Below are positions 263 through 481 of a DNA stretch of 4,791 nt, one piece after another; position 1 is the first letter of the stretch; each line of letters starts with the position of its first letter. Source of the stretch: a virus (taxonomy: Duplodnaviria > Heunggongvirae > Uroviricota > Caudoviricetes); IMG/VR virus record IMGVR_UViG_2737471846_000007; one strand, given 5' to 3'. The notes under the pieces are model-generated. The model was not told the DNA's origin, did no database searches, and was given only the letters and a program-made list of their open reading frames with translations. A program made the position numbers and the translations under genes.

Positions 263-481
263 TCACAGTCCCCATTGTTTGTTCTTAAGTTCGATCTCCT
301 CCTGGCAACTTGCACAAGTCCGACAACCCTGAACAGCCAGGCGTCTTCGCTCATCTATCGGATCGCCACACTCACAACAATGAGTTGCGGATACAGTCTG
401 GTAGTTCAGACGACGCATTTTTATTGCTGTATTGCGCTGTAATTCTTCGATTTCTGATGCTGAATCAATGATGTCTGCCAT
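263..481 (-). CDS. TraR/DksA-family C4-type zinc-finger protein (72 aa)
   Basis: Protein contains CxxC ... CxxC spacing (HCCECGDPIDERRRLAVQGCRTCASC) that aligns by eye with F-plasmid TraR (LCEACGNPIPEARRK...CVEC) and has an acidic N-terminal segment; size typical of phage TraR-like proteins. Stop TGA at 265-263. Confidence 0.8.
   Translation of the reverse strand: MADIIDSASEIEELQRNTAIKMRRLNYQTVSATHCCECGDPIDERRRLAVQGCRTCASCQEEIELKNKQWGL

Follow-up and report, generated by a model that had tools for sequence, protein, structure and literature searches.

What does a 72-amino-acid (aa) zinc-finger protein encoded in the early operon of a lambdoid phage do to its host, and what controls its gene? 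The question is raised by a 4,791-nucleotide stretch of viral DNA (Caudoviricetes; IMG/VR record IMGVR_UViG_2737471846_000007), called the window here at its full length, in which a preliminary description made from the sequence alone had singled out one such open reading frame (ORF), the target of this analysis. The favoured answer, given a probability of about 90%, is that the target gene is an allele of orf73 of phage lambda, that its product would act as a modulator in the secondary channel of RNA polymerase (RNAP), and that its expression would be controlled by its leader. The gene and the motifs on which this answer leans are the following.

481..263, minus strand: orf73-type gene, 72 aa, MADIIDSASEIEELQRNTAIKMRRLNYQTVSATHCCECGDPIDERRRLAVQGCRTCASCQEEIELKNKQWGL (ORF list, Pfam, PHROG)
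458..475, minus strand: DxxDxA acidic tip, codons D3-A8 (DIIDSA) (alignment with lambda Orf73, F-plasmid TraR and DksA)
305..379, minus strand: zinc ribbon CxxC-17-CxxC, codons C35-C59, with C35/C38/C56/C59 and the extra C36 and C53
341..346, minus strand: R46-R47, equivalents of TraR R48 (rim helices) and R49 (β′ Si3) (alignment)

The ORF runs from ATG to TGA exactly where the preliminary description had placed it. Comparisons with six orthologues (from lambda, Stx2 II, Shigella phage 75/02 Stx and three Enterobacter and Citrobacter prophages) gave ratios of nonsynonymous to synonymous differences (pN/pS) of 0.22-0.32, with pS up to 0.9, and because of these ratios the target is taken to be a real coding gene under purifying selection; a chance ORF was ruled out by pN/pS and homology. 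Pfam PF01258 (zf-dskA_traR) matched residues 33-64 with 37.3 bits against a gathering cut-off of 24.9 (E 2.8e-9), PHROG 54 ('DksA-like zinc-finger protein') matched residues 1-70 (E 3.6e-26), and a phmmer search of PDB sequences retrieved TraR over residues 1-69 (5w1s_M, E 7.7e-5) as well as the zinc finger of YbiI (2kgo, E 1.2e-5), all in line with the TraR/DksA-like identity first proposed. The protein is 100% identical to SfI_0031 of Shigella phage SfI, and the DNA is 100% identical to a locus of Escherichia coli 90-3040 whose RefSeq product, WP_000763385.1, is named 'TraR/DksA family transcriptional regulator'. Judged by its sequence, the target is a TraR-family zinc-ribbon protein and an allele of lambdoid-phage orf73. 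A true DksA was ruled out by size (72 aa) and the missing coiled coil.

Lambda orf73 (also Orf2310) lies at about 30614..30393 and is unannotated in both NC_001416 and J02459; the ORF is plainly present in that stretch despite the missing annotation, and tblastn found the target 87% identical to lambda 30402..30614. Lambda Orf73 has 86% amino-acid identity to the target and the same six-cysteine pattern, DxxDxA tip, ExxRL, R46/R47 and E64. Its gene also occupies the same place in the pL operon, with orf61 on one side, the xis-proximal genes on the other and the hairpin known as t2 upstream, and the order ea10-cIII-kil-gam-bet-exo-orf60a ... orf61-orf73 is collinear in lambda and the window, which agrees with the early-operon location claimed at the outset. 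Sequence and gene order together identify the target as the orthologue of lambda Orf73, a protein that the preliminary description had cited merely as an analogy.

DNA homologous to the 421-bp orf73 region is present in 3348 of 5426 complete E. coli genomes, where the gene again bears the name 'TraR/DksA family transcriptional regulator'. Copies at lambda level (84-87% to the target) were also seen on short or low-coverage contigs, some of ~48.5 kb, in dozens of assemblies of unrelated taxa, including Shewanella, Bradyrhizobium, Streptomyces, Paenibacillus and Prevotella (loci L016-L047); these are almost certainly contamination with lambda control DNA.

Functional residues were compared in an alignment that set the target beside its lambda orthologue, three further homologues from phages, F TraR and DksA (C-terminal half), the DksA sequence having first been verified against 1TJL, and conservation was counted in the target plus 93 near-full-length homologues from a 5.8-billion-protein search. 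The N-terminus is acidic (MADIIDSASEIEELQ), as had been claimed, and its tip, D3xxD6xA8, aligns with D3xxD6xA8 of TraR and D71xxD74xA76 of DksA, with D6 and A8 invariant and D3 conserved between the target, lambda Orf73, TraR and DksA; DxxDxA is found in 85 of the 93 close homologues. The predicted zinc ligands C35/C38/C56/C59 align with C37/C40/C58/C61 of TraR and with the C4 motif of DksA. Alignment with F TraR and DksA had been named beforehand as a check, and it finds acidic tip and C4 motif both conserved. The four-cysteine zinc finger of the preliminary description holds for this canonical set, but the protein has six cysteines in all (35, 36, 38, 53, 56 and 59). C36 and C53 correspond to TraR positions 38 and 55, where the two extra cysteines of lambda Orf73 also lie (PMC9239242). 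Among the 85 close homologues with an intact C4 set, 82 carry C53 (G-C53-x-x-C56-x-x-C59), a frequency similar to that of the zinc ligands, and 25 carry C36; C53 could possibly belong to an alternative zinc-ligand set or have a redox role.

The roles of TraR R48 and R49 at the rim helices and β′ Si3 have been described (PMC9239242); their equivalents R46 and R47 occur in 90 and 92 of the 94 aligned sequences. E44xxR47L48 is the lambda variant (ExxRL) of ExxRK, and E64 in the C-terminal helix is the TraR-family acidic residue. Functional positions are 90-100% conserved throughout this alignment, and the substitutions relative to lambda Orf73 spare every functional hallmark. The same list of TraR-family hallmarks has been published together with a model of Orf73 in RNAP (PMC8614690). 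One homologue, P0097 from an Enterobacter locus (L008) and seen on 86 contigs, has Ser at R47, the equivalent of the β′ Si3-contacting R49 of TraR, so the full hallmark set is not kept by all family members.

AlphaFold2, run on a 68-sequence alignment, gave a model with a mean predicted local distance difference test score (pLDDT) of 80.6, in which a helix (3-27) is followed by the zinc domain and a second helix (57-70). The single N-terminal helix leaves no DksA coiled coil, and 72 aa falls within the TraR-family range of ~70-75 aa. Foldseek searches of the PDB ranked 6n57_M first (probability 1.00, template modelling (TM) score 0.57, E 2.7e-3) and 5w1s_M second (probability 1.00, TM 0.55, E 1e-2), both TraR in RNAP complexes, with YbiI, DksA and DksA2 ranked lower; the E-values are modest, as is to be expected of an extended protein of 72 residues.

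Translation of lambda Orf73 is reported to have been first evidenced by the ribosome profiling of Liu et al. in 2013. The purified protein inhibited rrnB P1 (half-maximal inhibitory concentration ~50 nM) and rpsT P2 without guanosine tetraphosphate (ppGpp), competed with DksA for the RNAP secondary-channel site, was less active with the substitutions D3N and D6N, complemented a dksA-null strain and, when expressed from pL or pBAD, slowed host growth, and phage yield was 3- to 4-fold higher from wild-type lysogens than from orf73 mutants (PMC9239242). Because of the 86% identity and the retention of every tested or structurally implicated residue, the same mechanism can be proposed for the target by analogy and with high confidence, and the suggestion of a candidate secondary-channel modulator in the preliminary description gains support from this orthology. 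As inferred from gene order, induction of the prophage, or infection, would be followed by expression of the target from the leftward early operon of pL type. Its N-terminal helix would enter the secondary channel of E. coli RNAP and bring the D3xxD6xA8 tip near the active site, while the zinc-ribbon globular domain would sit on the β′ rim helices and Si3 via R46/R47 and the C-terminal helix would touch the β lobe/Si1. The resulting shift in RNAP conformation, made without ppGpp, would inhibit promoters with short-lived open complexes, such as those for rRNA and ribosomal proteins, and slower host growth with diverted resources would raise phage yield several-fold.

That the protein might instead be a generic DNA-binding regulator with a zinc ribbon and no action on RNAP is suggested by the words 'transcriptional regulator' in some database names and by YbiI, a protein of uncharacterised function, having the best PDB E-value. 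YbiI matches over the zinc finger only and TraR over the full length, the target retains the DxxDxA tip, and TraR and lambda Orf73 are described as acting without DNA binding (PMC9239242); such a regulator is scarcely credible here. Very improbable, too, is a primary role in blocking the initiation of host chromosome replication (lambda 'bin') via DnaA/oriC instead of RNAP reprogramming; in its favour is earlier work, cited in PMC9239242, that connects lambda orf73, along with ea22, ea8.5 and orf55, with a block on the start of host replication. In that study the effect on dnaA mRNA was at most weak and the effect on replication was proposed to be indirect, via rRNA transcription and supercoiling (PMC9239242); moreover, every RNAP-contacting hallmark is kept in the target, and searches of Pfam, NCBIfam and PHROG found no DNA- or DnaA-binding domain in it.

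Control of the gene is the other half of the question, and it turns on a short leader that follows the end of an orf61-family gene.

795..580, minus strand: orf61-family gene, 71-aa form from MTPQQ, open frame reaching back to 894 (PHROG 303, E 3.7e-43; 71-aa coding sequence in RefSeq)
583..488, minus strand: micro-ORF, 31 aa (ORF list)
559..541, minus strand: terminator-like hairpin AGGGAGCU-ACA-GGCUCCUU, 8 pairs, 4 GC, 3-nt loop, then TTTTATTGTT
540..531, minus strand: U-rich tract UUUUAUUGUU directly after the hairpin, encoding F-L-L-F of the micro-ORF (terminator scan)

The terminator-like hairpin and the possible micro-ORF that the preliminary description had noted upstream of the gene both exist, the hairpin inside the micro-ORF. 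The latter (31 aa, or 29 aa from its second ATG, MNMKSKIIRELQAPFLLFAFTLKRINQQFRD) is annotated as a hypothetical protein in phage SfI and had no match in Pfam, NCBIfam or PHROG. Its peptide is conserved in ~17 diverged enterobacterial loci, with the tail PF-LL-AFT--RIN-QFR- (the loci compared for leader and micro-ORF include L008, L010 and L048-L071), and a 39-aa, internally deleted form occurs in some lineages. It is homologous (E 1e-8) to the C-terminal tail of a full-length 74-aa orf61-family protein and is for that reason read as the remnant, or a miniature form, of an orf61-family gene; the orf61-family protein of the window itself is 43% identical to the 74-aa protein of L053. As far as sequence can tell, the ancestral junction consists of the orf61 tail, the terminator and orf73.

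The reading frames of this part of the operon are tightly joined. ATGA overlaps join the Dam methyltransferase gene upstream to a 27-aa ORF, that ORF to orf61 and orf61 to the micro-ORF, the last overlap being formed by the micro-ORF start and the orf61 stop, and the micro-ORF stops 6 nt before the orf73 ATG. Every leader variant has an upstream ORF that stops 1-6 nt before that ATG, the distance in the other lineages being 1-2 nt. The ATGA overlaps, together with a weak orf73 Shine-Dalgarno sequence, favour translation running through to orf73, so that translation of orf73 is probably coupled to the small upstream ORF, with the weak ribosome-binding site within the last codons of that ORF. 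An orf61-remnant micro-ORF that ends 1-6 nt before the orf73 start codon is a modestly new observation.

The orf61-family gene varies in length. An A-run near 733 on the minus strand has six A's in the window and seven in lambda (L001, ~2065); the extra A shifts the orf61-family frame in lambda to an early end, giving the annotated 61-aa orf61, and the form found in the window, Stx2 II and RefSeq E. coli has 71 or 93 aa.

The hairpin has a local folding energy of -9.7 kcal/mol and is identical in lambda and Stx2 II. A scan of the window found 13 terminator-like sites, against 4.3 +/- 2.1 in shuffles. Terminator t2, which corresponds to the 559..541 hairpin, was predicted in lambda and phi24B by Bloch et al. 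in 2014, who found by quantitative reverse-transcription PCR that orf73/ea22/ea8.5 mRNA was below that of upstream genes in lambda and not in phi24B (PMC4195576). The hairpin sequence of t2 in these two phages is identical to that of the window, and so is the T-run, bar a substitution in the -10 box of p1, a promoter overlapping the hairpin that was predicted with BPROM in the same paper. The -10 box reads TTTTATTAT in lambda and phi24B and TTTTATTGT in the window, an A-to-G change. A sigma-70 scan found no promoter-like site on the minus strand near the orf73-type gene, and p1 was not adopted, given this missing match, the A-to-G change and poor hexamer spacing (counted by hand). The separate regulation suggested in the preliminary description is therefore plausible on the strength of the t2 prediction and the lambda mRNA drop, though not new, and no sigma-70 site was found that would add to it. 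Neither J02459 nor NC_001416 annotates a terminator in the orf73 stretch. The available text of PMC4195576 makes no mention of the hairpin's place within a conserved, translationally linked micro-ORF.

Among the 19 distinct leader variants, 17 have a GC-rich stem and T-run, built from three stem sequences in all, and distant Enterobacter and Citrobacter prophages keep the hairpin with stems that differ. The main types are these.

Lambda and window: GGGAGC-UACA-GGCUCC
Most Enterobacter: GGUCGC-UAAA-GCGGCC, pairing register shifted by one
L049: Enterobacter type, with G.U changed to A-U
L053: AAGGGAC-UCGGU-GUCCCUU, two double compensatory changes relative to lambda

It is here that a less functional account has to be weighed, in which the hairpin is a coding by-product from an orf61-family gene, the micro-ORF an untranslated remnant, and orf73 simply co-expressed with the recombination genes. 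The match of the micro-ORF to the C-terminal tail of full-length orf61-family proteins fits this account, and so do L062 and L071, in which stem and T-run are both lost (codons CCA TTC ACT CTC) and the peptide is kept. Two statistics fit it as well, since 1-20% of synonymous recodings of each peptide are also terminator-like, and fixed-register pair counts beat column shuffles (0/500) yet slid-partner controls score similarly; the variants use two pairing registers, one column apart, which makes the single-register covariation test ambiguous. The statistics of hairpin conservation are suggestive only. On the other side, pairing is retained in three stems although the amino acids specified there differ (RELQA, RSLKR, KGLGV, MELMA), the T-run and T-rich codons (CCT TTT TTA TTG) are found wherever the hairpin is present and go only with it, and in Shigella phage 75/02 Stx an unrelated ant gene is followed by another hairpin with U6, with the Orf73 homologue directly after that hairpin. 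The mRNA drop downstream of t2 in lambda (PMC4195576) points the same way. A coding by-product is unlikely on this evidence but carries appreciable weight. Under the favoured leader-controlled reading, the hairpin and U-tract, 60-80 nt upstream of the gene, would most likely form an intrinsic terminator that restricts orf73 and the genes beyond to N-antiterminated transcription. That the hairpin lies inside the micro-ORF and is kept with different stems in distant prophages is modestly new.

A more speculative extension, itself rather improbable, would make the orf73 leader a translation-sensing attenuator, in which an intrinsic terminator lies in a translated orf61-derived micro-ORF whose stop abuts a weak start. 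Ribosomes close behind RNAP would mask the hairpin, delivering both transcription and translation into orf73, and low translation capacity or a lack of N modification would let the hairpin terminate transcription. If true, such an attenuator would tie an inhibitor of ribosome synthesis to host translational capacity and, in the lysogen, would prevent expression of a gene that slows growth.

Several observations weigh against the favoured reading as a whole, in addition to the recoding and slid-partner controls given above for the leader. The NCBIfam TraR-family model TIGR02419 (C4_traR_proteo) scored 53.9 bits, under its 59.7 cut-off; the alignment spans the whole profile (1-64 of 64, E 2e-14) with the score still below the cut-off, and the name 'TraR/DksA family transcriptional regulator' was given by the Prokaryotic Genome Annotation Pipeline (PGAP) at the identical locus despite it. 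A single-sequence AlphaFold2 model was poor (pLDDT 58) and was superseded by the alignment-based run. Lambda Orf73, unlike TraR, activated three tested host promoters weakly if at all, which the authors tentatively tied to its two extra cysteines (PMC9239242). Most differences between the target and lambda fall in the C-terminal helix (EEIELKNKQWGL versus EDLELISKQRGSK), the TraR counterpart of which contacts β Si1, and with this helix the most diverged part, quantitative differences from lambda Orf73 are possible.

The physiological role is also disputed, with yield raised by orf73 in one study (PMC9239242) and a pro-lysogenic role (PMC8614690) or reduced yield in other work. RNAP binding could be as described and the selected role nevertheless be a bias of the lysis-lysogeny decision and host survival, not lytic yield. 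Deletion of orf73 in lambda and Stx phages lowered post-infection survival and lysogenisation efficiency, as summarised in PMC8614690, and an earlier study reported phage yield to be reduced by Orf73. Against this stand the 3- to 4-fold lower bursts after induction of non-polar point mutants and an in-frame deletion (PMC9239242) and the expression of orf73 alongside N, exo and gam early in the lytic programme; a pro-lysogenic role is judged unlikely, if deserving of attention.

The favoured reading would place the gene among the factors of host takeover. Taken whole, the window corresponds to a lambdoid-phage pL operon (early, leftward), with all substantial ORFs on the minus strand; its other features are listed below.

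4782..4333, minus strand: predicted membrane protein, 149 aa (PHROG 3054)
4137..3769, minus strand: ea10, DUF2528 (domain match)
3696..3532, minus strand: cIII, with the Rfam thermoregulator at its start
3689..3420, minus strand: kil (PHROG)
3344..3048, minus strand: gam (domain match)
3042..2257, minus strand: bet, RecT (domain match)
2260..1580, minus strand: exo, YqaJ (domain match)
1589..1422, minus strand: orf60a, DUF1317 (domain match)
1429..872, minus strand: phage Dam N6-adenine methyltransferase, 185 aa (Pfam PF05869, E 3e-56)
215..15, minus strand: DUF4222 protein gene, 66 aa, in the lambda ea22 position, downstream in the same operon (Pfam PF13973, E 8.2e-20; PHROG 285; RefSeq)
1497-1519, 3726-3745, 4164-4185 and 4311-4328, all minus (transcribed) strand: further terminator-like hairpins (same scan)

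Megablast found 385 phage records that share segments with the window, among them lambda-like phages, Stx phages and SfI, and E. coli strain 90-3040 has, next to icd, a prophage that matches positions 200-620, the target included, with 100% identity. The Dam gene, in the lambda orf63 position between orf60a and orf61, is a mosaic replacement. The hairpin at 1519..1497 matches the classical lambda tL3. Within orf60a, this hairpin also matches the terminator t1 predicted in PMC4195576; a literature search turned up no useful coordinates for the lambda terminators tL3 and tL2. No Rfam family covers the orf73 leader, and the sole Rfam match in the window was the cIII thermoregulator (Lambda_thermo) at 3709..3651 on the minus strand, at the start of cIII (88.5 bits).

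Three further ORFs deserve mention. The 149-aa protein is encoded between ea10 and the ral region, a place at which nothing comparable stands in lambda; its function is unassigned in PHROG 3054, and it had no Pfam or NCBIfam match. The open frame of kil encodes 89 aa and matches PHROG 2461 at full length, of which RefSeq and lambda annotate only the 47-aa C-terminal part. The 27-aa hydrophobic ORF at 792-875 on the minus strand, MTTTECIFLAAGFIFCVLMLADMGLVQ, has a strong GGGAGG Shine-Dalgarno sequence, and its ATGA overlaps are with the Dam stop and the orf61 start; it lies in another frame than the annotated lambda orf61 extension, PGAP makes no call for it, and a peptide 44% identical to it is encoded directly upstream of the Orf73 homologue in locus L069. 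It is probably a real small membrane protein.

The target gene, carried by a common E. coli prophage, is lambda orf73, which has been characterised before, and the finding is already known; nothing conceptual is added, because the role was set out for lambda Orf73 in 2022 and the region is common in E. coli genomes. The gene illustrates how a phage may take over host transcription with a 72-residue mimic of DksA and ppGpp. What is of note beyond this is that Orf73-type genes travel with a conserved leader, a putative terminator in a translationally linked micro-ORF, and this architecture may account for the contradictory results on orf73 expression and phenotype obtained with lambda and Stx phages. 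The conserved fifth cysteine, C53, is a second small point.

Several known systems can be compared with the target. E. coli DksA (PDB 1TJL) has the Pfam zinc-finger family and the tip motif in common with it and binds RNAP at the same site as TraR-type proteins (PMC9239242), but DksA is a ppGpp-requiring protein of 151 aa with a two-helix coiled coil, whereas the target has 72 aa and no coiled coil. Pairwise BLASTP between the two was not significant (E 0.38), and phmmer of the target against the PDB did not retrieve DksA; the relation rests on the Pfam profile, the motif alignment and weak fold matches, and holds at profile and fold level only. E. coli YbiI (PDB 2KGO) has the same C4 zinc ribbon, and its match covers target residues 31-67, limited to the zinc finger. 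F-plasmid TraR (PDB 5W1S, 6N57), a ppGpp-independent secondary-channel binder (PMC9239242), is of the same length class and fold and has DxxDxA, CxxC-17-CxxC, RR and the C-helix Glu; it is 31% identical to the target, has four cysteines, and is encoded in a conjugation operon where the target is encoded in a phage early operon. Orf82 of phage P2, a phage homologue with the C4 zinc ribbon, binds RNAP and complements a dksA-null strain, lacks A8 and is ~5-fold less active than Orf73 (PMC9239242).

Lambda Orf73 itself has 73 aa where the target has 72, and the two differ by 10 substitutions (H27Y, A29T, I30V, V49A, D62E, L63I, I66K, S67N, R70W, S72L); the C-terminus of the target, EEIELKNKQ-GL, is of the type found in Enterobacter and Citrobacter prophages. 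Lambda has ea22 downstream and orf63 upstream, whereas the window has the DUF4222 gene and the Dam methyltransferase gene in these places, and the leader and micro-ORF peptide between are identical in both.

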